Below are positions 2,012 through 60,311 of a stretch of 64,000 nucleotides of DNA, one piece after another. A model generated the notes under the pieces. The model searched no databases. It worked only from the letters and a program-made list of their open reading frames with translations, and was not told where the DNA came from. Location of the stretch: the NCBI GenBank assembly GCA_043803385.1, contig JAZDKA010000009.1, positions 3,092-67,091 on the forward strand, given 5' to 3'. The DNA comes from Patescibacteria group bacterium (GTDB lineage Bacteria; Patescibacteriota; Minisyncoccia; Moranbacterales; JAKLHP01). A program made the translations under genes and the position numbers. Position 1 is the stretch's first letter. Every line of letters starts with the position of its first letter.

Positions 2012-3193
2012 TTGATAGAATATAAATATATGAAAATAGGAATTGATGCGAGAACAATTTTAAATCCTGAAAAAGGGGAAGATATCGGATCAGGGCACTA
2101 TACTTATCAGCTGATAAAGAATCTTTTGGAATTGGACACAGAGAATGAATACGTGCTGTTTTTTGATTTTCACGTTAGGGAAAAGGACATCAAAAAATTT
2201 ACCAAGCCCAATGTTAAGATAAAATTCTATCCGTTTTCAGACTACAAGAAATATCTTCCGGGAGCTTATAGTGAAATTCTCGGAACGGCTACTCTTTCCA
2301 GGGAAAAGCTAGACATTCTTCACTCGACTTCTCCGCACAGCCGCATCCCTCTGGGATACAGAGGAAAGTGCATAGTTACTTTCAATGATCTTGCTATGTA
2401 TAAAGTTCCTCATTGCTATCCAAAAATAAAAGTTGCCAAGGACAAAGCAGTATATAAGCTGATGGCGGGAAAAGCTGAAAAAATCATTGCCGTTTCGAAT
2501 TCAATAAAAAATGACATAGTCGATATTTTTAAAGTTCCTTCGGAGAAAATTTCAGTTGTGTATAGTGGATTGGATAAAAGATTTTTTTCCGAGCCCAATG
2601 GAAATATCCAAAAAATTCTGGAAAAATTCGGAATAACGAAAAAATATATCCTTTTTCTCGGGACTCTGTGTCCGTCAAAAAACATTACCGGGCTTTTGGA
2701 ATCTTTCGTTCTATTTAAGGAAAAAATCAAGAAAGAAAGCATGTCCTTTAACTACCAGCTGGTTTTGGGAGGGAAAAGAGGATGGCTATCAAAGGAATAT
2801 GCCCAGCAAGTCAAAGATTTTGGCCTTTCTAAAGACGTTATTTTTACCGGGTATGTCGTAGGCGACGAAGTGGTTGCGCTTTTCAAGAATGCCCAATTTT
2901 TTGTGATGCCGTCGCTGTATGAAGGCTTTGGAACCACCGTACTTGAAGCTTTTGCTACCGGAACTCCGGCTATTGTTTCCAAAGTTTCTTCCATTCCGGA
3001 AATTACGGGGGATTCCGCCTATTTCGTCGATCCGATGAATAAACAGGAAATTTCTGAAGCGATGTATAAATTTTCCCAAGATGAAAATCTCCGGAATGGA
3101 TATAAAATGAAAGGATTAGAACAGGCGAAAAAATTCGATTGGCAAAAAACCGCCAAAGAAACGCTGGAGATTTATAAAAGCATAATTCACTAA
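2012..3193 (+). CDS. Glycosyltransferase family 4
   Basis: KIGIDARTI N-terminus and C-terminal EGFGTTVLEAFATGTPAIVS GT-B donor-binding motif. Confidence 0.8.
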   Translation: MIEYKYMKIGIDARTILNPEKGEDIGSGHYTYQLIKNLLELDTENEYVLFFDFHVREKDIKKFTKPNVKIKFYPFSDYKKYLPGAYSEILGTATLSREKLDILHSTSPHSRIPLGYRGKCIVTFNDLAMYKVPHCYPKIKVAKDKAVYKLMAGKAEKIIAVSNSIKNDIVDIFKVPSEKISVVYSGLDKRFFSEPNGNIQKILEKFGITKKYILFLGTLCPSKNITGLLESFVLFKEKIKKESMSFNYQLVLGGKRGWLSKEYAQQVKDFGLSKDVIFTGYVVGDEVVALFKNAQFFVMPSLYEGFGTTVLEAFATGTPAIVSKVSSIPEITGDSAYFVDPMNKQEISEAMYKFSQDENLRNGYKMKGLEQAKKFDWQKTAKETLEIYKSIIH

Positions 3194-3243
3194 TCCTGCG
3201 AATTATTATTTGCGAGCATTCGCGAAGTAATTAGTGTTGATTA

Positions 3244-6200
3244 GTGATTTTTATTATCATGTTTAAAAAAATCGATCCAAAAATGAAATTTCCCGAGGTG
3301 GAAAAAGAGATACTGAAGTTTTGGGAAGAAAACAAGATATTTGAAAAGTCAGTTGAAAAAAATCCTGAGGACAACTCTTTTATATTTTACGAAGGTCCGC
3401 CAACGGCTAATGGTGTGCCGGGGCTTCACCATGTCTTAGCCCGGGCTTTTAAAGATATTATTCCAAGATACAAGACCATGAAAGGCTATCGAGTGGAAAG
3501 AAAAGCCGGTTGGGATACTCACGGGCTTCCGGTTGAAATCCAAGTCGAGAAAGAATTAGGAATCCATCAAAAATCCGAAATTGAAAATATTGTTCCGGGA
3601 AATCCAAGAGAAAGCATCATTGAGTTTAACAAGAAATGTAAAGAATCAGTTTGGAAATTTAAGGATTTATGGGAACAAATGACTAGAAGGATGGGATATT
3701 GGGTGGATATGGAACATCCTTATATTACTTATGAAAATAAATACATTGAATCGGTCTGGTGGGTGATAGCACAAATTGCCAAGCTAAAAACAGAAAAAGG
3801 CGAACCGGTTTTATATCAAGGGCATAAAGTTATTCCCTATTGTTACCGATGCGGAACAGCGCTTTCTTCGCATGAAGTCGCGCAAGGATACCAGAAAGTG
3901 AAAGACAATTCAGTTTTTGTAAAATTTCATTTAAAACTTGGACAAAAGTGGGCGGGGGAAAAATACGAGACAAAAGAATCAGTCTATGCGCTTGTCTGGA
4001 CAACTACGCCGTGGACATTGCCTGGCAATGTTGCATTAGCAGTTAATGAAAACATTTCTTATACCGCATTAAGAATAAATGGCATAAAAGAGCTGATAAT
4101 CTTAGCTAGTGATCAAGTTAAGAATATTCTAAGCGATAAAGATATTGAAATTATTCATAATGATATCAAGGGGAAAGATTTATTGGGTCTTGAATATGAA
4201 CCGCTTTATAAAACTAATAATACTGATAAAAAAGCTTATTATGTAATTTCCGGAGATTTTATCACCACTCAAGAAGGAACGAGCATTGTCCATATTGCTC
4301 CGGCTTTTGGGGAGGATGATTCTAATGTTGGTAGGGAAAACGATTTGCCAACACTTTCTACTGTTGATATTGAGGGAAAAATAATTAAAGGAATGAATAT
4401 TCCTGGAGAAGGTATTCCCGTAAAGAAAAAAAATGACAAAAATAAATATGAAGTTGATAATTTAATCATTGAAGATTTAAAGAATAGAAAATTATTATTC
4501 AAAGAAGAACTTTATGAGCATGATTATCCTTTCTGCTGGAGATGTGATACCCCTCTCATTTATTATGCCAAACCGTCGTGGTTTGTCCGAATGAGCGCAT
4601 TCAGAGAAATACTCGAAAAAAATAATCAAAATATAAATTGGATTCCGGAATATATCAAAGAAGGAAGATTTGGCGAGTGGCTTCGCGATGCCAAAGACTG
4701 GGCGATTTCAAGAGACCGATATTGGGGAACCCCGCTTCCGATTTGGAAATGTAAAGAATGCGGGAAAATAAAAGTTGTTGAATCAGTCGATGAAATAAAA
4801 GAACAGCTGGGAAATCCGAATAAATTATTTTTAATCCGCCACGGAGAAGCGGAGAATAATATTGAGGAAATTATTAGTTGTTTCCCCGAAAAAATCGATT
4901 ATCATCTTACTCCGAAAGGAAAAGAACAAATTAAAACAGTAGCTGAGCAATTTAGAAGTGTAAAGATTTCTGCTATATATTCCTCTCCACTTAAGCGCGC
5001 ACAAGAAACAGCCGAGATTATTTCCCAGATTACTGGAGCTGAAGTTATTATTGATGATCGTATCAGGGAGATGGATCTTAACGGGTTAAATGGAATAAAA
5101 ACAGATGATTTCAGAAAAATATATCTAAATGAAATACTTAATTTGAATACCGATGAACATGGAGTAGAAGGTTATAATCAGGCAGCAGAAAGATTAAAAT
5201 CATTTGTTAGCAATATAAACGAAAAATATCAAAGTGAGAATATAATAATTATATCACATGGAAATCCGCTGAAAGTTTTAGAAGGAATATGCAATGGCAA
5301 GAAAATAGAAGAATTAAAAAATGATACATATCTTGGAAAAGGAGAAATTAGAACCGTATATTCCAAATTATTTGATTTGCATAAACCATATATTGATGAA
5401 ATAACTTTCAAATGCGAATGCGGAGGAGAAATGAAAAGAGAATCGGAAGTGATGGATGTTTGGTTTGATTCCGGCTCAATGCCGACCGCCCAATTCCATT
5501 ATCCATTTGGCGCATCAAAAGAAGACAAGGAAAAAATCGAAAGTGGTAAATTCTATCCGGCGGATTTTATTTCCGAAGCGATTGATCAGACTAGAGGATG
5601 GTTTTACACTCTGCATGCAATTTCTACCCTCTTAAATGCGAACAAAAAAGTTCCGACCGGGCTTGCCTTTAAAAATGTAATTTGTTTGGGTCATGTTCTT
5701 GACGCACAAGGAAAGAAAATGAGCAAATCCAAAGGGAATATTATTGATCCGATGGAAGTGATGGATAAATACGGAGCCGATATACTCCGCTGGATGTTAT
5801 ACACGATAAATCAGCCCGGACTTCCTAAAAGATTTGATATCAAGAAAATGAACGAAATCATGAATCGGGTTTTCCGAATGCTTTGGAATTCGTATTCGTT
5901 TTTTGTGATGTATGCGAATATAGATAAATTCAAGCCAGTGAACAGTGAACAGGGAACAGGGAACAGTAAAAATTTATTAGACAAGTGGATTTTGTCAGAG
6001 CTTCAGGTTTTAATAAAAAATGTTGACGAAAAATTAAATAAATATGATATTTATAATGCTGGAAATTTAATCGAAAAATTCATTGATAATCTTTCCAACT
6101 GGTATATCCGCCGAAGCAGAAAGAGATTCTGGAAAAGCGAGAATGACGCAGATAAAAATGAAGCCTATCAAACTTTGCATTATGTCCTAGTTGAACTTTC

Positions 6201-6957
6201 AAAATTAATGGCGCCGTTTACGCCGTTTATCTCCGAAGAGATTTATCGAAATCTAGTTGCCCCTCACCCCAACCCTCTCCCAGAGGGAGAGGGGGGTGTT
6301 GTGTCTGTACATCTAGCTGATTTTCCCAAAGCGGATGAAAGCTTGATTGATGAGAAATTGAATGGGGAAATGAAATTGGTTCGCAACATAGTAACTCAAA
6401 ATCTAGAAGTGCGTGCAGCATCAAGAATAAAAGTTCGTCAGCCGCTAAATACGTTATTGATTTCTGGATATGAATTTAATAAAAATTTATTGGAAATTAT
6501 TTCTAATGAAGTAAATGTAAAAAAATGTGTTGTATCAGATGAGTCTGGCATTGAAGACGCAGAGAAAAAGGGATATATAAAGAGAGTTTTCTTTGATGAA
6601 TCTATCCAACAAGGAAAAAGATATTCTATTCAGGAGCCAATTAAACCAAGTCAGGCAGGCGTTAGGTTAAGCACTGCTTTAGACACCGAAATTACCGAAG
6701 ACCTGAAGCTTGAAGGGCAAGCTCGGGAAATTATTCGCCATATCCAGGAAATGCGGAAAGAAGCAGGCTTTGAAGTTGACAACCGGATAAAAATAGGATA
6801 TATTGGAATGTCTAAGGTTTTTGATAAATTTAGTTCCTTGATAACCAAAGAAACTTTGGCTGAAAATATGGATCTTGAAATTATAGAAGAATGTGATCTT
6901 AAGAAAGAATTTAAGATCGATGGAGAAAAATTAGAACTAAGTATCAAAAAAATATAA
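3244..6957 (+). CDS. ileS: Isoleucyl-tRNA synthetase carrying an inserted histidine-phosphatase (PGAM-like) domain and a 20-aa palindromic mini-insertion
   Basis: HIGH-like PTANGVPGLHHV, TTTPWTLP editing motif, CWRC zinc knuckle, KMSKS. Residues ~528-715 (LFLIRHGE...IIISHGNPL) match histidine-phosphatase branch-1 motifs. They lie between the WKCKEC and FKCECG cysteine pairs. Confidence 0.9.
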   Translation: MIFIIMFKKIDPKMKFPEVEKEILKFWEENKIFEKSVEKNPEDNSFIFYEGPPTANGVPGLHHVLARAFKDIIPRYKTMKGYRVERKAGWDTHGLPVEIQVEKELGIHQKSEIENIVPGNPRESIIEFNKKCKESVWKFKDLWEQMTRRMGYWVDMEHPYITYENKYIESVWWVIAQIAKLKTEKGEPVLYQGHKVIPYCYRCGTALSSHEVAQGYQKVKDNSVFVKFHLKLGQKWAGEKYETKESVYALVWTTTPWTLPGNVALAVNENISYTALRINGIKELIILASDQVKNILSDKDIEIIHNDIKGKDLLGLEYEPLYKTNNTDKKAYYVISGDFITTQEGTSIVHIAPAFGEDDSNVGRENDLPTLSTVDIEGKIIKGMNIPGEGIPVKKKNDKNKYEVDNLIIEDLKNRKLLFKEELYEHDYPFCWRCDTPLIYYAKPSWFVRMSAFREILEKNNQNINWIPEYIKEGRFGEWLRDAKDWAISRDRYWGTPLPIWKCKECGKIKVVESVDEIKEQLGNPNKLFLIRHGEAENNIEEIISCFPEKIDYHLTPKGKEQIKTVAEQFRSVKISAIYSSPLKRAQETAEIISQITGAEVIIDDRIREMDLNGLNGIKTDDFRKIYLNEILNLNTDEHGVEGYNQAAERLKSFVSNINEKYQSENIIIISHGNPLKVLEGICNGKKIEELKNDTYLGKGEIRTVYSKLFDLHKPYIDEITFKCECGGEMKRESEVMDVWFDSGSMPTAQFHYPFGASKEDKEKIESGKFYPADFISEAIDQTRGWFYTLHAISTLLNANKKVPTGLAFKNVICLGHVLDAQGKKMSKSKGNIIDPMEVMDKYGADILRWMLYTINQPGLPKRFDIKKMNEIMNRVFRMLWNSYSFFVMYANIDKFKPVNSEQGTGNSKNLLDKWILSELQVLIKNVDEKLNKYDIYNAGNLIEKFIDNLSNWYIRRSRKRFWKSENDADKNEAYQTLHYVLVELSKLMAPFTPFISEEIYRNLVAPHPNPLPEGEGGVVSVHLADFPKADESLIDEKLNGEMKLVRNIVTQNLEVRAASRIKVRQPLNTLLISGYEFNKNLLEIISNEVNVKKCVVSDESGIEDAEKKGYIKRVFFDESIQQGKRYSIQEPIKPSQAGVRLSTALDTEITEDLKLEGQAREIIRHIQEMRKEAGFEVDNRIKIGYIGMSKVFDKFSSLITKETLAENMDLEIIEECDLKKEFKIDGEKLELSIKKI

Positions 6958-7149: not shown

Positions 7150-7311
7150 ATGAACTTTTGGTCAAGTCAGTTGTTTAATCTACTGGTAGGTATAATCGTA
7201 TTTGCTATAGGAATTTTTGGCATTTGCAAGCCGCATGAGTGTCCCAAATGCGGAAAACATATACTTTTCCATAATCCGTGGAAGAGACACGAATGTGCGC
7301 CGGGAGGATAA
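7150..7311 (+). CDS. Small membrane-anchored zinc-ribbon protein (paralog of 6969..7139)
   Basis: AAGGAGG SD, TM helix, CPKC...HEC. The track ORF 7081 starts at TTG; ATG 7150 with the SD is the likelier start. Confidence 0.55.
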   Translation: MNFWSSQLFNLLVGIIVFAIGIFGICKPHECPKCGKHILFHNPWKRHECAPGG

Positions 7312-7321
7312 GAGTTTTCAT

Positions 7322-7355
7322 GCCCAACCTTAGAAGTTTCAAGGTTGGGCGTTTT
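7322..7355 (+). terminator. Rho-independent terminator
   Basis: GCCCAACCTT-loop-AAGGTTGGGC followed by GTTTT. Confidence 0.7.
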
Positions 7356-7371
7356 AATTTATAATGAATAT

Positions 7372-8088
7372 ATGGACTACAAATATACAGGCATAATTTT
7401 GAATAAGAAAGACGTTGGCGAAACCGACCGGATTTATACTATTTATACTTTAGAATCCGGAAAAATCATGGTTTTGGCCAAAAGCGTCCGCAAAGCCAAT
7501 GCAAAACTAGCCGGATTTCTGGAAAACTTTACTTTGGCGGAAATCTTTATTGCCAAGAGCCAGGGAATGGGAAAGATTACCGGTTCTCTGGTAATCAACA
7601 ATTTTCCCAAAATGCGGGAAAATCTTGAAGCGGTCGGAAGTGTTTTTAAATCTACGGAACTTTTGAATAAACTGATCAAGGACGAAAACGATGACCCAAA
7701 AATATTCGAGCTTCTCAAGGAATACCTCGAAACAATGAATAATCTGGATAGCCAGGAAGATAATTTCAAATTGGAAATAATTTCTTTGGGTTTTATTTTC
7801 AAGCTTCTTGAAGAATTGGGATATAAAATAGAAGCGAATAATTGCTTGGAATGCGGGGAGAAAATAAAAGAAGGGAACAACTTTTTCGATCCGGAGCAGG
7901 GCGGGATATTGTGCGGAAAATGTTATCCGAACATCAGAAAAGGCATTAAAATAAACTCCAATTCAATAAAAATATTAAGGATTTTTTTCCAAAACAGCCT
8001 AAAGTCTCTTCTTAAACTCAAAGCTGACAAAAAAGATATCGATAACTTGAAAATCGTAAAACAAGAATTCTTGCGTTGGGTAGAGTAG
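7372..8088 (+). CDS. recO: DNA repair protein RecO
   Basis: YKYTGIIL...E.DRI OB-fold N-terminus. C-terminal CLECG...CGKC zinc finger. Likely start is ATG 7372 (track ORF begins at TTG 7345 inside the terminator). Confidence 0.75.
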   Translation: MDYKYTGIILNKKDVGETDRIYTIYTLESGKIMVLAKSVRKANAKLAGFLENFTLAEIFIAKSQGMGKITGSLVINNFPKMRENLEAVGSVFKSTELLNKLIKDENDDPKIFELLKEYLETMNNLDSQEDNFKLEIISLGFIFKLLEELGYKIEANNCLECGEKIKEGNNFFDPEQGGILCGKCYPNIRKGIKINSNSIKILRIFFQNSLKSLLKLKADKKDIDNLKIVKQEFLRWVE

Positions 8089-8124
8089 TTTGTTTTAAAT
8101 GGCTGTTTTTGGTAAAATAGACTT

Positions 8125-10029
8125 ATGTCTCTCGACGATCTTGAAAAAAAATTATACGATCCCGATTCCGGAATAGAAAAAAGAACCCATGAGGAAAGCC
8201 AGTTTAATCCTCTTAGTTCTTCGAATAGCGGCCTGGATTCTCTCAAAGAAGAAAAACAATGGTCAGAGCAGGAGAATGTTCCCGGGATTGATAAGAAAAA
8301 ATTTATTAAAATCGGAGCAATAGCGCTTGGCTCTATTATTCTCGTGGCGGCTTTTATTGTTGGATTTGTGAAATATAGACAGTCGGCTTTCAAACAAGAA
8401 AGAGTTTCAATAAAAATAGAAGGTCTCGCTCAAGTGAATGGTTTTGAAAAAACAGCTTATAAAATAATTTTTAAGAATGATAATCGGGCAAGCCTCGATA
8501 ATGCAAAGATCCTTTTGAATTATTCAGAAAATTTCAGGCCTGATGAAAGCCAGAACTTGAAAATTGACAATCCCTCCAATAGCAGAATAATCCTCGGAAC
8601 CATAAAAGGAAATTCAGAAGGAGAAATAGATATTGCTGGCTCGTTTCTCGCCGCTAAAGACTCGACTGTTTACATAAATTCGACTTTGGAATACACACCC
8701 AGCAGTTTTAGCATCGCTTTCCAATCCAAAAGCCAATTTGGGGTAAATATTGAATCATCGCCTTTGTTTTTGGAAGTGGAAGCTCCTTTAGAAGCCGTTG
8801 ATGGGAATAAAATTGATTATGTGGTTAATTACAGAAATACGAGCGGAGAATATTTTGACGGCGTTAGGCTCAAAGTTGAATACCCGGAAGGATTTTCTTT
8901 CATTTCTTCGAACCCGTCTCCTTCGGAGGGAAACATAATTTGGTATTTGGGAAGCATCGCTCCCAATCAAGACGGAAAAATTGTTATAACCGGGATGATA
9001 AATGGCTCGGAGCAGGAAGAGAAAGTAATCAAGGCATATTTAGGATACGCCAGTGGAAATGGATATTTTGTCGTTTACAACCAAAAGGAAAAGCTTACTA
9101 AAATTTCATCTTCTCCTCTTTTTATTCTTCAGCAGATTGACGAGAAAGCTGATTCCAATGTGGATGCCGGAGAACTTTTAAGATATTCTATTGAGTACAA
9201 AAATAATGGAAGTATTGCTATGCAGGACGTGGTCATAACGGAAGAAATTGACAGCCGAGTTTTGGATTTTTCAAAATTAGAATCAGGAAAAGGCTCTTAT
9301 GATGCTTCAAAAAAAATAATTATCTGGAAAGCTTCTGATATTCCTGCTCTTTCGAGTTTGGCTCCCGGACAAGGAGGAAAAATATCTTTTTCTGTCCCGA
9401 TTTTGGGCCGTATCCCGGTAGGGAATATTAACGACAGCAATTTTACCGTTATTAGTACGGCAAAAATCGACAGCCCATCAATCGCCAATCCGATAGGATC
9501 AAATAAAACAATAGCCAGCAGCACGCTGAACCTGAAATTGAATTCCAGAGCTGTTCTCGAGGTGAAAGGATATTACAATGACAGCGGAATTCCTAATTCC
9601 GGACCAATTCCTCCCAAAGTGGGACAGGAAACATCGTATACCATCCATTGGAAAATTATTAATGTTTCCAATAATTTGAGCGATGTCAAGGTAGTATCGT
9701 CGCTTCCTTCCGGAGTGAAATGGAACGGAAAATTTTTGCCTAACGATGAATCGCTAAGTTTTAACGAAAGGACAAATCAAGTCGAATGGGCGATTGGAAA
9801 TATGAAAAACGGCGTGGGAATTTTAGAGCCCGCAAAGGAAGTAAGTTTCCAAATAAGTGTTGTCCCGCAGGTTAATCAAGTGGGAGAAGAATTGGTGCTT
9901 GTCAATCCTTCGATTCTCACCGCCAAAGATGTTTTTACCGGTGTTGATATAAAATCTGAAGTCGGGCAAAAAGATAATAATATTTCAGAAGATACTGGCG
10001 CAAATGGAAAATATAGGGTAGAAAATTAG
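8125..10029 (+). CDS. Large membrane-anchored surface protein with repeated beta-sandwich (DUF11/CARDB-like) segments
   Basis: Single N-terminal TM (IGAIALGSIILVAAFIVGF) followed by ~550 aa of repetitive Ser/Asn/Gly-rich beta-rich sequence. Confidence 0.45.
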   Translation: MSLDDLEKKLYDPDSGIEKRTHEESQFNPLSSSNSGLDSLKEEKQWSEQENVPGIDKKKFIKIGAIALGSIILVAAFIVGFVKYRQSAFKQERVSIKIEGLAQVNGFEKTAYKIIFKNDNRASLDNAKILLNYSENFRPDESQNLKIDNPSNSRIILGTIKGNSEGEIDIAGSFLAAKDSTVYINSTLEYTPSSFSIAFQSKSQFGVNIESSPLFLEVEAPLEAVDGNKIDYVVNYRNTSGEYFDGVRLKVEYPEGFSFISSNPSPSEGNIIWYLGSIAPNQDGKIVITGMINGSEQEEKVIKAYLGYASGNGYFVVYNQKEKLTKISSSPLFILQQIDEKADSNVDAGELLRYSIEYKNNGSIAMQDVVITEEIDSRVLDFSKLESGKGSYDASKKIIIWKASDIPALSSLAPGQGGKISFSVPILGRIPVGNINDSNFTVISTAKIDSPSIANPIGSNKTIASSTLNLKLNSRAVLEVKGYYNDSGIPNSGPIPPKVGQETSYTIHWKIINVSNNLSDVKVVSSLPSGVKWNGKFLPNDESLSFNERTNQVEWAIGNMKNGVGILEPAKEVSFQISVVPQVNQVGEELVLVNPSILTAKDVFTGVDIKSEVGQKDNNISEDTGANGKYRVEN

Positions 10030-10033
10030 AATT

Positions 10034-11158
10034 ATGTTTGAAATAGTAAACTCTAACGGGAAAAAAAGAATAGGAAAATTATTGACTAACCATGGGGAGC
10101 TCGAAACTCCCTTTTTTATGCCTGATGCGACCAGGGGATTTGTGAGGTCTTTGGATAATGAAGATTTAATTAAGGCCAGCGTCAGTCCAATAGTAGTCAA
10201 TACTTATCATCTCTACTTAAAGCCCGGAATGGAATTAATAAAAAAGGCTGGAGGCATTCATAATTTTATGAACTGGCAAAAACCTCTCCTTTCTGACTCC
10301 GGCGGATACCAAGTTTTTTCCCTGATTCACAAAAATCCAAAAATGGGAAAAATTACCAAGAATGAAGTTATCTTCAAATCTCCGTATGACGGCTCAATCC
10401 ACAAATTAACGCCCGAAAAATCAATCCAGATCCAGTTTGATCTGGGAGTGGATATGATGGTGTGCCTGGATGATCCGCCACCCAATAATTATTCCAAGGA
10501 AAAAATAGAAAAAGCGGTGGAAAGAACGATAATATGGGCGGAAAGATGCAAGAAAGAATATAATAAACAAGTTAAAAGTCGAAAGCTTAAAGTCAAAAGC
10601 CAGCCGCTTATTTTCGGAGTAATTCAGGGCGGAAAATATCTAGATCTCCGAAAGCATTGCGCGGAAGAATTGGTTAAAATCGGTTTTGATGGATATGGTT
10701 TCGGAGCCAGGCATATTGATGAGGAAGGAAATATTATGGATAAAGTCCTGGAAGAAGTGGCCAGCTACATACCGGAAAATTCCTTGCGCTTTGCTTTAGG
10801 GGTAGGAACGCCGGAAGATATTGTTAAATGCGTAAATTATGGATGGGATATGTTTGACTGCGTCATTCCGACAAGAGAAGGAAGGCACGGTCGGATTTTC
10901 GTTAGAAAATCCGAAGTCAAAAGTCAAAAGTCAAAAGTCAAAAGTGATTTCTATGAAACAATAAATATCAATAATGAGAAATATGCCAATGATTTTTCGA
11001 AAGTTGATGAAAATTGCGGCTGTGAAATGTGCCAAAATTATTCCAAATCCTATATGCGGTATTTATTCTCCCAGAAAGAGCCGATGGCCATGCGCCTCGC
11101 CAGCCTCCATAATCTAAAATTCTATATGGATTTGATGGAAAATTTAAGAAATAAATAA
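10034..11158 (+). CDS. tgt: Queuine tRNA-ribosyltransferase
   Basis: GELETPFFMPDATRG N-terminus, DSGGYQ, zinc site CGCEMCQNYS...H. Contains in-frame (GTCAAA)4 insert at 10917-10945. Confidence 0.9.
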   Translation: MFEIVNSNGKKRIGKLLTNHGELETPFFMPDATRGFVRSLDNEDLIKASVSPIVVNTYHLYLKPGMELIKKAGGIHNFMNWQKPLLSDSGGYQVFSLIHKNPKMGKITKNEVIFKSPYDGSIHKLTPEKSIQIQFDLGVDMMVCLDDPPPNNYSKEKIEKAVERTIIWAERCKKEYNKQVKSRKLKVKSQPLIFGVIQGGKYLDLRKHCAEELVKIGFDGYGFGARHIDEEGNIMDKVLEEVASYIPENSLRFALGVGTPEDIVKCVNYGWDMFDCVIPTREGRHGRIFVRKSEVKSQKSKVKSDFYETININNEKYANDFSKVDENCGCEMCQNYSKSYMRYLFSQKEPMAMRLASLHNLKFYMDLMENLRNK

Positions 11159-11211
11159 AGTTATCCACAAGGCTGGCATTGACAGAAATACTGATAGTGA
11201 TACAATATCAC
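11159..11211 (+). promoter_or_regulatory. Conserved promoter/operator module, copy A (DnaA-box-like TTATCCACA, TTGACA -35, 16 nt, palindrome GTGATACAATATCAC containing -10 TACAAT)
   Basis: Near-identical architecture at 35719..35772 and 49226..49278. Confidence 0.6.
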
Positions 11212-11411
11212 CATAGAAACATCTAAATAAAAACAAGCCATGGACCACAACGGGCGACGCTTGTTTTCCTAGATGCTATGAATAATAACATCTAATGTGA
11301 GTATAGCATCATTCAATAATCTGTCAAGTTGAAATTTTCCCGATGAGTTGATAATAAAGCCGAAATATGAGAATATTAAGATGTTGATAAATATTAAATA
11401 AACTTAAAAAT

Positions 11412-12170
11412 ATGAGTCTAGTAATCGCAACATATGTGCCGGAAGGCATAGTCATGGCGTCCGACAGCCGGCAATCTATAACGCTTGAAGGTAAAACACC
11501 CGATGGCAAAGATTTACCGAAAATCGACACAGTAAATTCCGATAACGTCTATAAAACCTATCTTATATCCAGAAAAGATAATGATGGAAAACCGATTTTT
11601 GAAATTGGCATTAGTTCTTTTGGTCAGGATCTTTTAGGCGGCATTCCCACTGCCAGCCATATAAAAAGATTCACGGAAGAAGAATTGACAGATGAAGATG
11701 ACATCACGATAATTCCCAAGAAGCTAGTTGATTTTTTTATAAAATTATTTCCAAAAGCAGACACAGGATTTCATGTTGCCGGGTATAAAAAAGAAGGAAA
11801 GATAAGTATCCCATATATTTTCAATTGTCATGTGGCTAAAAATATAGTTGAAAGAAGAAACGAAAAACCTGATAAAACATTAGCCTATGGAGCGACTTGG
11901 TCAGGACAAATCGATGTTTTGGCGGGGATTTTACAGCCCTCCGCATTGCCAGGTCCCGAGGGAAAAACTTTAACGATGCCAAAACCGCCGATAATTTGGG
12001 ACGCAATGGCGCTTCAAGACGCGATTGACTTTTCCACTTATGCGATAAGGACAACGATTGACACTATTCGTTTTCAAGCACGACCGAAAAATGTCGGTGG
12101 TCCCATTGATGTTTTAGTAATTACTCCCGATGGAGCAAAATGGATTCAAAGAAAAGAATTAAAAGGATAA
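11412..12170 (+). CDS. Hypothetical protein, possible proteasome-fold Ntn-hydrolase (Ser N-terminal nucleophile)
   Basis: MSLVIATYVPEGIVMASDSRQS resembles proteasome beta/HslV T1...GxxxxADSR spacing (nucleophile at position 2, Asp at 17). Confidence 0.3.
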   Translation: MSLVIATYVPEGIVMASDSRQSITLEGKTPDGKDLPKIDTVNSDNVYKTYLISRKDNDGKPIFEIGISSFGQDLLGGIPTASHIKRFTEEELTDEDDITIIPKKLVDFFIKLFPKADTGFHVAGYKKEGKISIPYIFNCHVAKNIVERRNEKPDKTLAYGATWSGQIDVLAGILQPSALPGPEGKTLTMPKPPIIWDAMALQDAIDFSTYAIRTTIDTIRFQARPKNVGGPIDVLVITPDGAKWIQRKELKG

Positions 12171-12180
12171 AAATAAGTTT

Positions 12181-12873
12181 ATGGAAAAAGAAATTTCTAA
12201 ATATTTGGTTGTTGATGCTTCTGGTTTAGACCCCATCAGGTATTCAATTAAAAGTGGTTGGATGAAAATGGAGGATATAAATAAATTTTTAGAGAGTGGT
12301 AAGATACAAATATGTATAACAAATTCCGCTTTACAATGTGGAGAATTTAGTTATTCTGAAACGCCAGATCTCTTTACTCATAATATAATTAATTCTGGCA
12401 CAAATTCTTCTGTGTATATTAAAGACGAAAAAGTGCTAAAACGTGGCATAAGTTTCTGGCTTACTTCTAATGGTACAATTACACTCGATCAAAGTTTATC
12501 TAAAAACGGACTAGAATTTAGTGTTTTTAATACGACAAGCGGAACTCTGTCTGATTGTTCAAAATTATCCGTTCCGGATAAATCAGCCATTTCTTTAGCA
12601 AGATATCTTTTAAATATTAAAAAGACTGCGATTCTGGTTCATGACAAAAAAATACGAAAACAAGCTCGATGTAAAAAAATTTCTTTTTATGGTTCTGCCT
12701 CATTTCTTGCAGGTATGGCTATTTCCAGGATATATGCATATCAAAAAGCTACAAGGTTGTATTATAAATGGAAAAATCAGGATAAACGTTGGATACCAAA
12801 TAAGATGAATTTTAAAGAAGTATTAGGTATTGAAAAATTACGTTTTCAAAAAGGAGAAAGTTTTTGGCTATAA
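12181..12873 (+). CDS. Hypothetical protein with basic C-terminus
   Basis: Long ORF with no recognisable motifs. Confidence 0.35.
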   Translation: MEKEISKYLVVDASGLDPIRYSIKSGWMKMEDINKFLESGKIQICITNSALQCGEFSYSETPDLFTHNIINSGTNSSVYIKDEKVLKRGISFWLTSNGTITLDQSLSKNGLEFSVFNTTSGTLSDCSKLSVPDKSAISLARYLLNIKKTAILVHDKKIRKQARCKKISFYGSASFLAGMAISRIYAYQKATRLYYKWKNQDKRWIPNKMNFKEVLGIEKLRFQKGESFWL

Positions 12874-13136
12874 CGATTAGTTTTTATCTATGAAAAATAG
12901 GACATTATATTTCGGTGATAATTTAGAAATACTCCGCAAGAAAATTACGGAAACCTTGACTTTTGGCTTAAAATACGCTATAATTAGACATAGTGAATAG
13001 AAAGCCTAGCAAAGAAGGCTTTAAAAAAGGGGAAATTGGAAGGGTGTTTCGAGGGTGAAACACTTTTTTGTTTTTTCCTGTAAATTACGCCAGCCCAAGG
13101 CTGGTCCGCCTATGGCGGAAATATGCGAATATTATT

Positions 13137-35718: not shown

Positions 35719-35772
35719 AGTTATCCACAGAGCAAAGTATTGCAATAATTCATATTAGTGATACAATATCAC
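35719..35772 (+). promoter_or_regulatory. Conserved promoter/operator module, copy B
   Basis: GTTATCCACAG, TTGCAA -35, 16 nt, GTGATACAATATCAC. Confidence 0.6.
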
Positions 35773-35783
35773 TGTAATTAAAA

Positions 35784-36005
35784 ATGCATCATAAGCTTAT
35801 GGCTCAATTCACAGAAAAACAAATTAAAAGACAAGATTTTGTGGATAATGAGATTTTTGAGTTGATTCAACAGCTTGTGCCATCCGCAAAAATTAAATGG
35901 GATATTGAGATGATAGGAAATGTTCGGGACTCAATACAGACACAGCTTGCTGATAAGCAAAAATTAATGAGCGAAACGATATTTTATCCATATCTAAAAA
36001 TATGA
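35784..36005 (+). CDS. Small hypothetical protein, first gene behind module B (possible controller/accessory of RM system)
   Basis: 73-aa ORF 12 nt after the -10 palindrome. No clear HTH. Confidence 0.35.
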   Translation: MHHKLMAQFTEKQIKRQDFVDNEIFELIQQLVPSAKIKWDIEMIGNVRDSIQTQLADKQKLMSETIFYPYLKI

Positions 36006-36072: not shown

Positions 36073-36939
36073 ATGATAGTTAGCACTATAGAAAAATTGA
36101 ATTTATTCACTGTAAAGACAAAAGCTAAGGTAAAAGCCGATGTTATTTTAGGCGATTGCTTCAATGCCTTAAAAAATATGCTGGACAACTCCGTAGATCT
36201 CATTGTTACATCACCTCCGTATGCCGATCAGAGGAAAGACACTTATGGGGGGATTAGCCCCGACAAATATGTTAAGTGGTTTTTGCCAATAACAAAAGAG
36301 TTATTGCGTGTTCTACATCCGAAAGGAACATTCATTTTGAATATTAAAGAAAAAGTTGCAGATGGTGAACGTCATACCTATGTCATGGAGCTAATTATTG
36401 AAATGAGAAAACAGGGCTGGCATTGGACAGAAGAATTTATTTGGCACAAAAAAAATTGCTTTCCGGGCAAGTGGCCCAACCGTTTTCGTGATTCTTGGGA
36501 GCGACTTTTGCAATTCAACAAAACAAAAGATTTTAATATGTATCAAAACGAGGTAAGAGTGCCTATGGGTAATTGGGCAAAAACTCGTCTGAAAAATCTT
36601 AGCGAAACGGACAAACGAAGAGACAACTCAAGGGTGGGCAGCGGTTTCGGGAAAAACGTATCTAATTGGGTAGGTCGCGAATTGGCTTATCCTACGAATG
36701 TGCTTTCAATGGCTACGGAGAGCTCTAATAAAAAACACAGCGCAGTTTTTCCGAAAGAACTACCGAGCTGGTTTATTAAGCTTTTTACAAAACCCGGCGA
36801 TGTGGTTCTCGATCCATTTTTGGGCTCTGGTACGACTTCAGTTGCGGCATTTCAGCTTGATCGTAACTCTATAGGTATTGAAATACAAAAGGAGTATCAC
36901 GAACTTGCTGTCGAAAATATTAACGAACAAACAAAATAA
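36073..36939 (+). CDS. Beta-class DNA methyltransferase (SPPY motif IV first, FxGxG motif I last; likely N4-cytosine, possibly N6-adenine)
   Basis: DLIVTSPPYADQR near N-terminus. DVVLDPFLGSGTTSVAA near C-terminus. Confidence 0.85.
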   Translation: MIVSTIEKLNLFTVKTKAKVKADVILGDCFNALKNMLDNSVDLIVTSPPYADQRKDTYGGISPDKYVKWFLPITKELLRVLHPKGTFILNIKEKVADGERHTYVMELIIEMRKQGWHWTEEFIWHKKNCFPGKWPNRFRDSWERLLQFNKTKDFNMYQNEVRVPMGNWAKTRLKNLSETDKRRDNSRVGSGFGKNVSNWVGRELAYPTNVLSMATESSNKKHSAVFPKELPSWFIKLFTKPGDVVLDPFLGSGTTSVAAFQLDRNSIGIEIQKEYHELAVENINEQTK

Positions 36940-36940
36940 T

Positions 36941-37699
36941 ATGAAAAAACTAAACTACGGAAAACTTAATACATTTATTGCATCTGATGTAATAAAGCCA
37001 TTCTACGAGATAAGGCTTAATCGGCTTGAATCTGCAAGGCTGTCCGTTATTTCAAAACGAAAAAATCCCTACTTGTTCAAAGCAAAAAATATTGAAACTG
37101 CGGGCGATTTAGCGAAGAGCATTCTTGACGCGTTTTTATCCTCCCAAGAGGAAACGATTTTCGGAGATCTCATGGAAAATCTTGCTATTCATGTCTGCCA
37201 TGAGGTATTTAAGGGCAAGAAAGCTGAGGAAGGAAAATATCGCAGTGTTGATTTAATCTTTGATCGTGATAAGAAAACTTACATTGTTGGTATCAAATCT
37301 GGACCAAATTGGGGCAATTCTGATCAAGTGAATACAATGAAAAGAAATTTGAAAATTGCTAAAAAGTTTCTTCGTGCTGAACTCAAGAAAAGTAACGTCG
37401 TTTCTGTAAATGGATGTATTTACGGGCGAGACAATAATCCGCACAAAGTGAACAAAGACCCCGACCTTAGCTATTATAAAATCTGTGGGCAATCTTTTTG
37501 GGAACTGATCTCTAGTGATGACCAATTGTACAAGAAGATAATCCAACCACTCGATAAAGAGGCAAAGAAAAGGGACGATGTATTTAAGAAATTGTATGTA
37601 AAGAAAATTAACGAAATGACCAAGGATGTCGTTAATCTTTTCTACACAAAAGACTGTTTGGATTGGGATAAAATAATTGACTATGTCTCAAAAAAGTAA
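36941..37699 (+). CDS. Putative type II restriction endonuclease (cognate of 36073 methyltransferase)
   Basis: Starts 2 nt after methyltransferase stop. No methyltransferase/other motifs. Weak PD...xK-like VDLIFD...IVGIK. Confidence 0.4.
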   Translation: MKKLNYGKLNTFIASDVIKPFYEIRLNRLESARLSVISKRKNPYLFKAKNIETAGDLAKSILDAFLSSQEETIFGDLMENLAIHVCHEVFKGKKAEEGKYRSVDLIFDRDKKTYIVGIKSGPNWGNSDQVNTMKRNLKIAKKFLRAELKKSNVVSVNGCIYGRDNNPHKVNKDPDLSYYKICGQSFWELISSDDQLYKKIIQPLDKEAKKRDDVFKKLYVKKINEMTKDVVNLFYTKDCLDWDKIIDYVSKK

Positions 37700-40230: not shown

Positions 40231-40307
40231 TGGTGCGCCCTGAGGGATTCGAACCCCCGACCCTCACGTCCGAAGCGTGATGCTCTAATCCGCTGAGCTA
40301 AGGGCGC
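40231..40307 (-). tRNA. tRNA-Arg (anticodon TCG), CCA encoded
   Basis: Cloverleaf on reverse complement: GCGCCCT/AGGGCGC acceptor, anticodon arm TCACG-CTTCGGA-CGTGA, TTCGAAT T-loop. Confidence 0.75.
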
Positions 40308-40321
40308 ATATTTTATCTATG

Positions 40322-40393
40322 GGTGGGTAGAGGGAATTGGACCCTCGTACCTGGTACCACAAACCAGTGTTCTACCATTGAACTATACCCACC
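40322..40393 (-). tRNA. tRNA-His (anticodon GTG) with encoded G-1
   Basis: G-1 + GTGGGTA acceptor pairing to C73. Anticodon arm CTGGT-TTGTGGT-ACCAG. Confidence 0.8.
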
Positions 40394-40410
40394 ATTATTT
40401 TTTTACTTTG

Positions 40411-40482
40411 TACGCCCAGGGGGAATCGGACCCTCATATCCAGCTTAGAAGGCTGGTGTTCTATCCATTGAACTATGGGCGC
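40411..40482 (-). tRNA. tRNA-Arg (anticodon TCT)
   Basis: GCGCCCA acceptor. Anticodon arm CCAGC-CTTCTAA-GCTGG. Confidence 0.75.
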
Positions 40483-40502
40483 ATAATCGTATCATTTTTC
40501 TG

Positions 40503-40575
40503 TGCGCTGTGAGGGATTCGAACCCACGACCGTTTGCTTAAGAGGCAACTGCTCTACCAACTGAGCTAACAGCGC
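40503..40575 (-). tRNA. tRNA-Lys (anticodon CTT)
   Basis: GCGCTGT/ACAGCGC acceptor. TAGCTCAGTTGGTAGAGC D-arm. Anticodon loop CTCTTAA. Confidence 0.75.
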
Positions 40576-49225: not shown

Positions 49226-49278
49226 GGTTATCCACAGGCGAAGGGTTGCAATAGTGTTGATAAGTGATATAATATCAC
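49226..49278 (+). promoter_or_regulatory. Conserved promoter/operator module, copy C
   Basis: GTTATCCACAG, TTGCAA, 16 nt, GTGATATAATATCAC. Confidence 0.6.
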
Positions 49279-49300: not shown

Positions 49301-50467
49301 ATGAACGCGATATTAAAGAAAAAACAATTAGGGCAATTTTTCACCAAAAATGCAGAATATATTCTGAAAAATTTAGGTAAATATATAAAAGGGAAAAATG
49401 CCGTTGATCCTTTCGCTGGTAACGGGGATTTAATAGAATGGGCGAAAGAAAATGATGCGAAAACCATTAAAGGTTTCGATATTGATTCCAGATACATTGA
49501 TAACAAAAAAGTTTTCAAGAATGACAGTATAAAAAATGTCAAAAAATATAACTTTGTGATAACTAATCCTCCTTATTTGAATGTGAATAAGGCGAATAAG
49601 GAAATCAAAAAAGAGTATTTTGGAAGCAATGACTTTGAAGATTTATATCATATTTCCTTGAATTCGATAATGAATAGTGAGGAGGGGATAGCTATTGTTC
49701 CAATTAATTTCCTATCAGCTCAAAATTCAAAAAAAATCAGAAATATATTCTTTTCCAAATTTAGAATAGTCGAGATGAATTATTTCAAACATCAAGTTTT
49801 TCCAGATACTACTTATAATGTGATAGCTTTTTATTATCGGAAAAAAGACAATGCTTTCGACAATGGTTTTACAATCAAAACTCACATTTATCCAGAAGGA
49901 AAAAAGATTGACATAGAATTATGTAAAAATCATGATTGGTCAATTGGCGGGAAAATTTTTAAATTAATAAAAAATCAAAAGAATTTTTTGGGCGTGAAAA
50001 GACTTACAGAAAAAGATATAGCAAGTAAAAAGGGAAATATTAAAATCAAAGCAGCTTATAATCATGTTAAATGCAAAAAGGAATTCGCTGTTTCGAAAGA
50101 TATTTATGATGCTATAAAATCTAATATCATATTGTTAAAAGCGATAGATAGCGGTTCAGAAAAAGGAAAAATTGCCCTAGAAAATATTCGGGAATACGGA
50201 GTCGATTGTTTGGTGAGTAAAGAAACATCGAGGCATATGATTTATTTAGTGCTGGAAAATAAAATTTCTATTTCCGATCAAAAGAATATCATCAATTCTT
50301 TTAACAAGGAGATTAATAAATTACGCGAAGATTATCTCTCTCTTTTCCTTACTAATTATAGAGATAAAGATAGGAAAAGAATCAGTTTCGATTTCGTTTA
50401 TAAGTTTATTAATTATTTATATTTTAACAGCTTAAATTATGCTAAAAGACAATCAGTATTACTTTAA
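49301..50467 (+). CDS. Gamma-class N6-adenine DNA methyltransferase (TaqI-like) with C-terminal target-recognition domain
   Basis: GQFFTK (motif X), DPFAGNG (motif I), ITNPPY (motif IV). Confidence 0.85.
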   Translation: MNAILKKKQLGQFFTKNAEYILKNLGKYIKGKNAVDPFAGNGDLIEWAKENDAKTIKGFDIDSRYIDNKKVFKNDSIKNVKKYNFVITNPPYLNVNKANKEIKKEYFGSNDFEDLYHISLNSIMNSEEGIAIVPINFLSAQNSKKIRNIFFSKFRIVEMNYFKHQVFPDTTYNVIAFYYRKKDNAFDNGFTIKTHIYPEGKKIDIELCKNHDWSIGGKIFKLIKNQKNFLGVKRLTEKDIASKKGNIKIKAAYNHVKCKKEFAVSKDIYDAIKSNIILLKAIDSGSEKGKIALENIREYGVDCLVSKETSRHMIYLVLENKISISDQKNIINSFNKEINKLREDYLSLFLTNYRDKDRKRISFDFVYKFINYLYFNSLNYAKRQSVLL

Positions 50468-51347
50468 ATATTCATTGAATCATCCTGAGCCAATTTGGGA
50501 TGAGTACTTTTATCCCTTTCTGGAGTCAATAGTAAAAAAGAAAGAATATAAAAATATTCTAGATCTTGAAGATTATATCTCAAAAATGAGTAGCAAATTG
50601 ACAAATAAAGAAATTAAGAAGCTACTGGGCTTGCTTAAATGCAAAGGATGTGAAAAATCATACTTTGCTTTCTTTTTAAGAACATGTGATTTGAGTGTTG
50701 CAGAAATTACTGATCAGAAATATTACGACTCATCAGAACGCATTAATGCTACACGAAAAGCATTAGGAATTTACAAAAAGGAAAGAGGTACACCCAAAAC
50801 TGATAAATGTTCATTGCAAGCATATAACGATGCGCAAACTGCCAAAAGACGTAGTGACGCAGGAGAAAAGAAGGTAATTAAATTATCTGGATTGTCAATG
50901 GCATCAGATTTGTCTGGCTTGGACAATAAAATAGCAAAAATTAGTAAAGGTAGCGGAAAATTTAAAATCAAAGCCATTAAAAAATTATTTGGAATAAAAT
51001 TCAAGTTTAGCAAAAAAGACAAAGTGCCAGACTGCATTTTTAAGATAAAAGATAGAGTTTTCATACTTGAGGCCAAGCATGTAAATGGGCAAGGTGGCGC
51101 ACAAAATTCATCAATTAGTGAGTTGGTATCTATATTGGAACTCAAAGAAAAAAATCCTAAAATATTTTATATTGCTTTTCTAGACGGGTGTTATACAAAA
51201 TATTTAACTGTTTCCAAGTCTAATAAAGACGGAACGATGCCTGAAAAACAACTCTATAGAATTGAAAAAACTTTAAATAAAAATGAGAGCAATTACTTTT
51301 TGAATACAGCAGGATTCGTTCAGTTCATGAAAGATTTAAAAAAATAA
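50439..51347 (+). CDS. Putative type II restriction endonuclease (PD-ExK)
   Basis: PDCIFKIKDRVFILEAK = PD-x12-E-A-K. Overlaps methyltransferase stop. Confidence 0.5.
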   Translation: MLKDNQYYFKYSLNHPEPIWDEYFYPFLESIVKKKEYKNILDLEDYISKMSSKLTNKEIKKLLGLLKCKGCEKSYFAFFLRTCDLSVAEITDQKYYDSSERINATRKALGIYKKERGTPKTDKCSLQAYNDAQTAKRRSDAGEKKVIKLSGLSMASDLSGLDNKIAKISKGSGKFKIKAIKKLFGIKFKFSKKDKVPDCIFKIKDRVFILEAKHVNGQGGAQNSSISELVSILELKEKNPKIFYIAFLDGCYTKYLTVSKSNKDGTMPEKQLYRIEKTLNKNESNYFLNTAGFVQFMKDLKK

Positions 51348-59910: not shown

Positions 59911-59982
59911 GCCGCCATCGTCTAGTGGTTAGGACAACAGGTTTTCATCCTGTAAACAGGGGTTCGATTCCCCTTGGCGGTA
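59911..59982 (+). tRNA. tRNA-Glu (anticodon TTC)
   Basis: GCCGCCA acceptor. Short D-stem GTC/GAC. Anticodon arm ACAGG-TTTTCAT-CCTGT. TTCGATT T-loop. Confidence 0.8.
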
Positions 59983-60116
59983 CATTGATTATTTTAATTT
60001 TTTTGATATAATGAGTTTGTTTTGACAATTTAATATTATTCCGCGGTAGCCCCGACGCAAGGTCGGGGTCCCGACTGAAACGTCGGGACTCAATGGTCCC
60101 AGCACCAAACTTTTGC

Positions 60117-60188
60117 TCCGGCGTAGCTCAATGGTAGAGCAGTTGACTGTTAATCAATTGGTTGTAGGTTCGAATCCTACCGCCGGAG
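60117..60188 (+). tRNA. tRNA-Asn (anticodon GTT)
   Basis: TCCGGCG/CGCCGGA acceptor. TAGCTCAATGGTAGAGC D-arm. Anticodon loop CTGTTAA. G73. Confidence 0.8.
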
Positions 60189-60311
60189 CAAAAAGTTGGT
60201 ACGGGATAAGGCTTCGCTAAGGTTGAACCTTAGCGGCGTAAACAGGGCTCATAAAAATTCCAAAAATAAAATTAATAATCAGTTTATTTATTTTTTAATA
60301 GCTTAAAAAAT

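Follow-up and report, generated by a model that had tools for sequence, protein, structure and literature searches.

A promoter-like module recurs three times, each time in front of different genes, in the 64-kb stretch of Patescibacteria DNA analyzed here (the whole stretch is called the window below), which raises the questions of what the module does and which protein recognizes it. A sequence-only reading had described the same architecture at three places. A pattern search for the composite GTTATCCACA-N9/10-TTGMMA-N12-GTGATAYAATATCAC returned exactly three matches in the window, all on the + strand, and none in 100 dinucleotide-preserving shuffles of it; the start coordinates first assigned had been one base early. 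The modules are 52 to 53 bp in size and span positions 11160-11211 (copy A), 35720-35772 (copy B), and 49227-49278 (copy C). Their parts are as follows:

11160-11169, + strand: copy A box 1, GTTATCCACA, which includes the DnaA-box 9-mer TTATCCACA; about -53 to -44 from the predicted start
11179-11184, + strand: copy A -35 element, TTGACA
11197-11211, + strand: copy A putative palindromic operator, GTGATACAATATCAC, around the extended -10 TG-A-TACAAT (hexamer at 11201-11206)
35720-35729, + strand: copy B box 1
35740-35745, + strand: copy B -35 element, TTGCAA
35758-35772, + strand: copy B putative operator, GTGATACAATATCAC (-10 hexamer at 35762-35767)
49227-49236, + strand: copy C box 1
49246-49251, + strand: copy C -35 element, TTGCAA
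49264-49278, + strand: copy C putative operator, GTGATATAATATCAC, a perfect 7-1-7 palindrome (-10 hexamer at 49268-49273)

The window contains three exact GTTATCCACA 10-mers and three exact 15-mers, all of them inside modules A, B, and C. Box 1 is separated from GTGATA by 27 to 28 nt in these modules, and the 16-nt spacer given earlier between the -35 element and the -10 hexamer was correct. The segments between box 1 and the -35 element have no common sequence (aggctggca in A, gagcaaagta in B, and ggcgaaggg in C), and neither do those between the -35 element and the palindrome (gaaatactgata in A, taattcatatta in B, and tagtgttgataa in C). Identical boxes joined by unrelated spacers indicated selection on separate functional elements rather than recent duplication; the cargo genes differ as well, in agreement with the proposal that the conservation lies in the regulatory DNA. 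The sequence GTGATAYAAT, found in all copies, constitutes an extended -10 element (TG-n-TAYAAT), with which a -35 element is optional, as in extended -10 promoters of the sigma-70 type. In all module copies, the palindrome covers the region from the extended -10 through the predicted start and thus overlaps the core promoter in the manner of an SOS box. The suggestion that a palindrome encloses the -10 therefore held for all three window copies, but perfect 7-1-7 symmetry was confined to copy C, copies A and B having one asymmetric base (TACAAT). The other TGnTAnAAT promoters of the window lack both box 1 and the ATCAC arm, as had been noted for its ordinary promoters.

A strict metagenome scan with GTTATCCACA-N26-29-GTGATAYAATATCAC, a pattern with 24.5 specified positions, returned 32 loci, against a calculated chance expectation well below one for collections of any plausible size. 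In all, 31 distinct module copies were obtained, the three of the window included. The gap between box 1 and the palindrome was 28 nt in 14 copies, 27 nt in 12, 29 nt in 4, and 26 nt in 1. Further conserved bases were AAA 5' of box 1, GG 3' of it, and T-R-T-A-A after the palindrome, and A...T flanks lengthened the palindrome to 17 bp in 25 of the 31 copies. The -35 element was often poor, with a best match of 3 to 6 of 6 positions and only 3 of 6 in 12 copies. In 7 of the 31 copies, an extra half-site, (G)TGATA(T), lay between the -35 element and the palindrome (L104, L106, L119, L125, L129, and window positions 11191-11195 and 49258-49262); in several of these copies it was about 11 to 12 nt upstream of the left arm, and it is possibly auxiliary.

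In nearly all copies, and in every one that could be judged, an ORF toward which the module pointed started 5 to 60 nt downstream. Type II restriction-modification (R-M) systems formed the largest cargo class, and the R-M cargo included a C5 methylase with a HinP1I endonuclease and Vsr, an N6_N4 methylase with MutH-like or DUF6996/6997 proteins, and a HaeIII endonuclease with a C5 methylase. Other cargo comprised Bro-N, KilA-N, RhuM, Fic, MazF, DUF3800, and SDH-type protease genes. In addition, three loci (L108, L111, and L132) had an S24 peptidase gene with a LexA DNA-binding domain, followed by RmuC. A scan of viral sequences for box 1, N25-30, and GTGATAYAAT yielded 20 loci, none of which had the ATCAC arm; a scan for TTG plus the palindrome yielded 40 loci, all without box 1, a number that fits a rough chance estimate among strong phage promoters; and a looser full-module pattern gave only three viral matches. 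With the viral scans nearly empty for the full module, the module is not a phage feature.

Copies B and C precede two different R-M systems, with a beta-class and a gamma-class methyltransferase, respectively, and with the gene content that the sequence-only reading had given. The features behind the three copies are as follows:

11212-11280, + strand: hairpin of about 70 nt that begins at the predicted transcription start of copy A (-20.1 kcal/mol; z, -3.0); terminator-like on both strands
11300-11327, - strand: convergent promoter-like site, TTGACA-16-TATACT with TG, facing the hairpin; consensus match only
11412-12170, + strand: copy A cargo, a conserved 252-aa protein without a known domain
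12181-12873, + strand: copy A second gene, 230 aa, no family
35784-36005, + strand: 73-aa ORF behind copy B, no HTH or family match
36073-36939, + strand: copy B beta-class N6/N4 DNA methyltransferase (PF01555, N6_N4_Mtase; 5.9e-47)
36878-37699, + strand: copy B EcoO109I-family restriction endonuclease (PF14511; 1.3e-71)
49301-50467, + strand: copy C gamma-class DNA methyltransferase (Eco57I-like, NPPY)
50439-51347, + strand: copy C putative restriction endonuclease (weak Tsp45I and BsuBI-PstI matches, 3e-5 and 3e-4)

The 73-aa ORF had no match in Pfam, PADLOC, or NCBIfam and, with neither an HTH nor a family match, is not recognizable as a C protein. A homologue of the copy C methyltransferase in L109 likewise lies behind a module. 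For copy A, neither the 252-aa nor the 230-aa ORF matched Pfam, PADLOC, or NCBIfam. The 252-aa protein is 100% identical to MFH0969043.1 (Patescibacteria group bacterium) and belongs to a family of >1,900 proteins; its predicted structure was of low confidence (pLDDT, 48.5), and a PDB profile search with it gave nothing significant. On a 921-kb contig, L161, a 73%-identical homologue begins 33 nt behind a full module, GTTATCCACA-ggcgagggg-TTGCAA-N12-GTGATATTATATCAT, and is followed by a DUF6941 gene and a C5 methylase gene. In L158 to L160, homologues without the module lie between a gene that we labeled integrase-like from our own reading of the translated upstream sequence and HEPN, MerR, and ParAB genes, and the partner (second) gene of the cassette varies among genomes. 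Copy A, too, thus drives an accessory cassette.

The leader of copy A, with its hairpin and minus-strand promoter-like site, could be an attenuator or an antisense pair. No Rfam family was found at copy A or its hairpin, no plausible toxin ORF was found in the 200-nt leader, and the homologue in L161 has no such leader. A short ORF (MKNRTLYFGDNLEILRKK...) at positions 12890-13000 resembles the N-terminal remnant of a beta-class DNA methyltransferase and may be a decayed R-M system adjoining the copy A cassette; a promoter-like site (12956-12984) and a CAP-domain gene come after it. The GC content of the window is about 37%, and its GC skew is positive over most of its length and negative only at about 38 to 46 kb, where the genes are encoded by the minus strand; outside this region, almost every gene is on the + strand. 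Clusters of tRNA genes lie at 40231-40575 (- strand) and 59911-60189 (+ strand).

The LexA-like protein found behind the module has 220 aa, with a Peptidase_S24 match of 2.5e-17 and a LexA_DNA_bind match of 3.3e-4 that was under the cutoff. The GDSM motif and the conserved Lys are present, and the predicted cleavage position is Cys-Gly, not Ala-Gly. A total of 596 homologues were found at an E value of <=1e-10; the best 120 of them had 70 to 94% identity, and several were named Candidatus Moranbacteria or annotated as LexA. The surrounding genes are housekeeping genes, with nrdR-nrdD-nrdG directly downstream in three lineages. The S24 protein is no mobile-element repressor. The following lexA promoters were collected through protein homology, independently of the motif:

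L136, 73% protein identity: box 1 present; tandem ATGATATGATATCAC-ta-ATGATAATTAATCAC
L137, 80%: box 1 present; GTGATATAATATCAT plus an extra TATCAC near the start codon
L146, 79%: box 1 present; GTGATATAATATCAT plus an extra TATCAC near the start codon
L148, 75%: box 1 as CTTATCCACA; degenerate copy GTGATATAATAACAT
L150/L151, 71%: no box 1; TTGACT-N12-GTGATATAATATCAC-ta-GTGATAATATATCAT, tandem
L140, 70%: no box 1; weak site GTGATACATAAACAC just after the -10

The palindrome was present in lexA promoters of six lineages, in tandem in two of them and without box 1 in one, with a weaker site in a seventh. Nine lexA loci have it when those found by either route are considered (three via the motif, namely, L108, L111, and L132; five via the protein; and the weak L140), a pattern that points to autoregulation. 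Since these promoters share the palindrome, sometimes in tandem and sometimes without box 1, the palindrome is the common element and box 1 is dispensable. In 199 kb, consisting of the window and about 135 kb of nonredundant related chromosome, GTGAT-N5-ATCAY occurred only in lexA promoters and in modules A, B, and C. The palindrome is conserved in related genomes, and in approximately 200 kb of related chromosome the module stood at lexA and at no ordinary housekeeping gene; neither of the outcomes named beforehand as refuting the sequence-only reading was observed. The window itself contains no lexA, so the link of the palindrome to lexA in this genome rests on relatives, which share 67 to 88% nucleotide identity with it in common genes.

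Some further features of these lexA loci were observed. In L137/L139, at about 9870-10000, an insertion of about 150 nt, bounded by inverted repeats (cccggtagtgaaacttcaac...gttgaagttctactaccggg), separates the lexA promoter/operator from the start codon of the gene. In L140 to L145, a module-less lineage, an array of gtcattccga...ggatgaca repeat units occupies the long intergenic region about 450 nt upstream of lexA. In L150/L151, positions 7218-10469 hold a GyrB gene with an intein (Pfam Intein_splicing, precomputed annotation).

A box-less palindrome was found at one core SOS gene locus other than lexA; recA did not occur on any of the DNA analyzed. In L133, a promoter, TTGACT-17-TATAGT, drives genes for a 141-aa S24 protein that is UmuD-like and for a Y-family polymerase, with an SRAP gene divergent; GTGATAGTATATCAC at 6708-6722, about 1 kb from the L133 module, extends over the start site of this promoter and the last part of its -10. 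A passage of one report lists lexA, recA, dinB, and umuDC as core SOS genes across phyla (PMC8565304). At the orthologous S24-polymerase loci L152 to L155, GTGAAC-N4-GTTCAC, a LexA box of the Gram-positive type, lies between the -35 and -10 elements, and the S24 protein, of 187 to 190 aa, has a canonical LexA winged-helix N terminus; the L133 protein, unlike these orthologues, has no DNA-binding domain. In L155, where this locus lies at 2686-4687, the SRAP gene is also divergent, and an IS1595-type transposase gene adjoins the operon in L152. Judged from these sequences, the palindrome looks like a replacement of the canonical LexA box at an orthologous SOS operon, that is, an operator swap. 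The Erill laboratory has outlined how a regulon whose primary LexA was lost can come back under the control of a diverged LexA (PMC8565304), and the change of operator between L133 and L152 to L155 fits such a takeover. Of our arguments for assigning the palindrome as operator to the 220-aa LexA-like repressor, this apparent swap is the strongest.

Box 1 had been described as a perfect DnaA-box consensus, and every copy did match at 9/9 positions. The 9-mer TTATCCACA was kept exact across copies, including those in promoters collected independently of the motif, and box 1 is conserved more strictly than the palindrome. The box 1 center is about 40 bp from the palindrome center, with a gap of 26 to 29 nt upstream of the palindrome. 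In the 199 kb, TTATCCACA was observed 19 times, against 2.5 expected, although 10 of these instances come from sequences that had been selected for (modules or lexA promoters). The remaining nine include three that stand alone, in either orientation, between the lexA stop codon and nrdR (L137, 10678; L146, 10756, - strand; and L148, 10718, - strand). The nrd genes are regulated by DnaA in E. coli. Compared with the DnaA box (TTATNCACA; strongest form, TTATCCACA), box 1 is identical to the strongest form, but the module has a single box at a fixed distance from the operator and not an origin cluster.

A genome-contig scan in which box 1 and GTGATAYAAT were separated by 30 to 36 nt, rather than the 27 to 28 nt of the module, served as an off-register control. 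It gave 43 matches, none with the ATCAC arm, and 23 were titled as CPR taxa. Six of these 23 drive type IV pilin genes (L006, L013, L014, L036, L037, and L038), with GTTATCCACA lying 30 to 36 nt upstream of GTGATATAAT; the N-terminal methylation motif was confirmed by Pfam in four of the pilins and was visible in the other two. The taxa were Jorgensen-, Niyogi-, and Yonathbacteria, Paceibacterota, and contigs labeled Saccharibacteria. By our own reading of the translations, several other off-register matches appear to drive secreted or surface proteins. No pilin genes were found in the window or the Moranbacteria loci. Because the same 10-mer precedes pilin promoters across the CPR, an association that the DnaA-box family does not predict, box 1 is an upstream promoter element of general use, separate from the operator. 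This suggests a general activator site rather than replication control, and box 1 probably binds an activator, either DnaA or another CPR-wide factor.

The recurrence of the module is real and biologically meaningful, and the earlier operator idea is right in kind. The reading we favor, to which we assign a probability of about 0.65, is that the module is an extended -10 promoter occluded by a global LexA-like repressor, with the palindrome as an SOS box of new sequence. Each copy consists of a sigma-70-type promoter whose extended -10, TG-n-TAYAAT, is accompanied by a variable -35, and the 15- to 17-bp palindrome over the -10 and the start, (A)GTGATAT-A-ATATCAC(T), would be the operator. The presumed binder is the 220-aa, presumably self-cleaving S24 repressor whose gene adjoins nrdR-nrdDG in Candidatus Moranbacteria and their relatives. 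When bound, this repressor would keep RNA polymerase from the promoter; damage to the DNA would bring derepression through RecA-stimulated self-cleavage, and a factor bound at box 1, as a separate upstream element, would raise promoter strength. Reading the palindrome as a LexA-type operator would place the R-M systems and the copy A cassette in an SOS-like regulon, and the two R-M systems and that cassette are probably switched on by DNA damage.

The operator part of the earlier proposal of a dedicated repressor and operator was thus supported by conservation in relatives, by tandem copies that are dispensable for the promoter, and by the A...T extension in most copies. The idea of a repressor dedicated to R-M systems was not borne out: the module stands at the lexA-like gene and a box-less palindrome at the umuD-like/Y-family polymerase/SRAP locus, so the likeliest binder is the lineage's global LexA-like SOS repressor. 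Against this LexA reading, the left arm of the palindrome coincides with the extended -10, so that promoter function accounts for the conservation of some of the palindrome; strong phage promoters can contain the same 15-mer, in numbers that fit a rough chance estimate; an endonuclease induced while DNA is damaged offers no obvious advantage; and the Cys-Gly cleavage site of the repressor is atypical. We know of no description of SOS control of Type II R-M systems.

A possible though less probable explanation, compatible with LexA-type repression, is that the module serves as a portable promoter unit, carried along with horizontally acquired defense and mobilome genes or copied in front of them, its regulation being secondary. 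As the sequence-only reading had suggested for a cassette accompanying acquired defense genes, the module precedes many unrelated accessory and defense genes, the 31 copies including four or more R-M types, and it has been duplicated as a unit in one genome. In that genome, L148, the promoter of lexA matches that of a RhuM/Fic gene located 1.1 kb upstream at 50/52 nt; the match begins exactly at TTATCCACA, ends exactly with the palindrome, includes a hairpin spacer, and does not continue beyond these limits. Furthermore, the window and L104 have common flanking genes (73 to 93% at the protein level) with different variable segments between them, and each segment has a module before a different R-M system; in L104 this module forms the left edge of the segment, and in the window a single ORF lies between it and the edge. 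In one relative, the TPR gene found before copy B is present but is followed by neither module nor R-M system. The L148 duplication and the variable segments tie the module to gene-content variation and indicate that it can be copied as a unit. However, the unrelated spacers of A, B, and C show that these are not recent copies of one another; no recombination site, recombinase, terminal repeat, or attC-like site was seen at the module; the conserved chromosomal lexA also bears it; and accessory genes in the box-1-less lineage L150 do not.

It is unlikely that the palindrome is bound by some other global regulator with lexA and the polymerase operon among its targets. No regulator except the LexA-like protein was seen behind the module, but only short genome stretches are visible, which leaves room for such a regulator. 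The tandem sites at lexA and the replacement of the canonical LexA box at the orthologous SOS operon argue against it, as does autoregulation, which is the rule for LexA.

Less probable again is that the module is simply the consensus strong promoter of the lineage, its symmetry a by-product of a symmetric extended -10 with no repressor. GTGATAYAAT is an ideal extended -10, and many unrelated phage promoters contain TTGACA-N12/13-GTGATAYAATATCAC. The ATCAC arm, however, is lacking from ordinary window promoters, the off-register control, and the viral scan (one of 21 viral matches had the near-miss ATCAT); the second tandem copies at lexA and the copy at the polymerase operon lie outside or beside the -10; and lexA alone has the palindrome in the approximately 135 kb of related chromosome.

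A dedicated R-M controller, whether a C protein acting at a C-box or a methyltransferase binding its own promoter, is scarcely credible: two R-M operons have the palindrome over their -10, and in copy B a small ORF comes before the methylase gene, but that ORF has no HTH or family match, copy C has no small ORF, and the distribution of the palindrome, which also precedes lexA, toxin, Fic, Bro-N, RhuM, and MazF genes and R-M systems of unrelated specificity, contradicts it. Resemblances to the Fur box, NrdR box, lambda operator, and C-box were set aside on grounds of spacing or orientation.

The proposed LexA-type operator can be compared with several known systems. Like LexA operators, the palindrome lies over the -10 and start and occurs at the gene of the presumed repressor, sometimes in tandem, and at a umuD-like/Y-family polymerase operon. 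Tandem operators are classical for lexA, which has two in E. coli (PMC9210283). The outer GTGA...TCAC is the same as in the GTGAAC-N4-GTTCAC of the orthologous loci. It differs from the Gram-positive LexA box, GAAC-N4-GTTC, in being GTGAT-N5-ATCAC, with an odd length and another spacing; in its presumed binder, an S24 protein with a divergent N-terminal domain; and in that the members found here are mostly R-M and accessory genes, not repair genes. The operator sequence had no exact occurrence in open-access literature text; the motif may already have been published in a study of the Patescibacteria SOS network (Sanchez-Osuna et al. 2017; PMID 28618189), to which passages of two later reports refer (PMC7739468 and PMC8565304). 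R-M systems with C proteins also have an operator in the promoter of the R-M operon, but here there is no C gene or C-box, and the operator is common to non-R-M genes and lexA.

Among mobile-element genes, the Tum antirepressor of coliphage 186 and the SOS-induced toxin gene tisB are controlled by LexA. Bro-N/KilA-N antirepressor-like, MazF, and Fic genes likewise lie behind the operator here; the differences are that the whole upstream architecture, including box 1, is common and that Type II R-M systems are the largest class. In Moraxellaceae, immunity by R-M and CRISPR systems is enhanced by the WYL regulator DdaA when DNA is damaged (PMC12392091). The logic would be the same, one DNA damage regulator serving repair and antiphage defense genes, but DdaA is a WYL activator, and the regulator proposed here is a LexA-type repressor in a CPR lineage, predicted from sequence alone.

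The CPR bacteria have few regulators and almost no cultured members, and to our knowledge almost nothing is known of their transcriptional regulation. We offer as speculation, somewhat less probable than the portable unit above, that Moranbacteria-like CPR bacteria use a compact, transferable, damage-inducible cassette combining an activator site that is common to the CPR and has the sequence of the DnaA box, at which DnaA or another factor would act as a global activator in regulator-poor genomes, with the operator of a noncanonical LexA that took over the SOS regulon from a canonical LexA. Incoming R-M, toxin, and antirepressor-like genes would acquire or carry this cassette, and much of the immunity of these cells would stay silent until DNA damage or infection. 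If LexA-type control is correct, the palindrome would provide a testable operator sequence for a noncanonical LexA, and the replacement of GAAC-N4-GTTC at the orthologous polymerase operon would be a case of regulon takeover. The module, together with the box 1 shared with pilin genes, would also supply practical parts for regulated expression tools in CPR bacteria. As far as we know, the sole regulators for which joint damage control of repair and defense has so far been demonstrated are of the WYL type and come from other bacteria; here, Type II R-M systems and other defense genes would be predicted to belong to the DNA damage response of the lineage.
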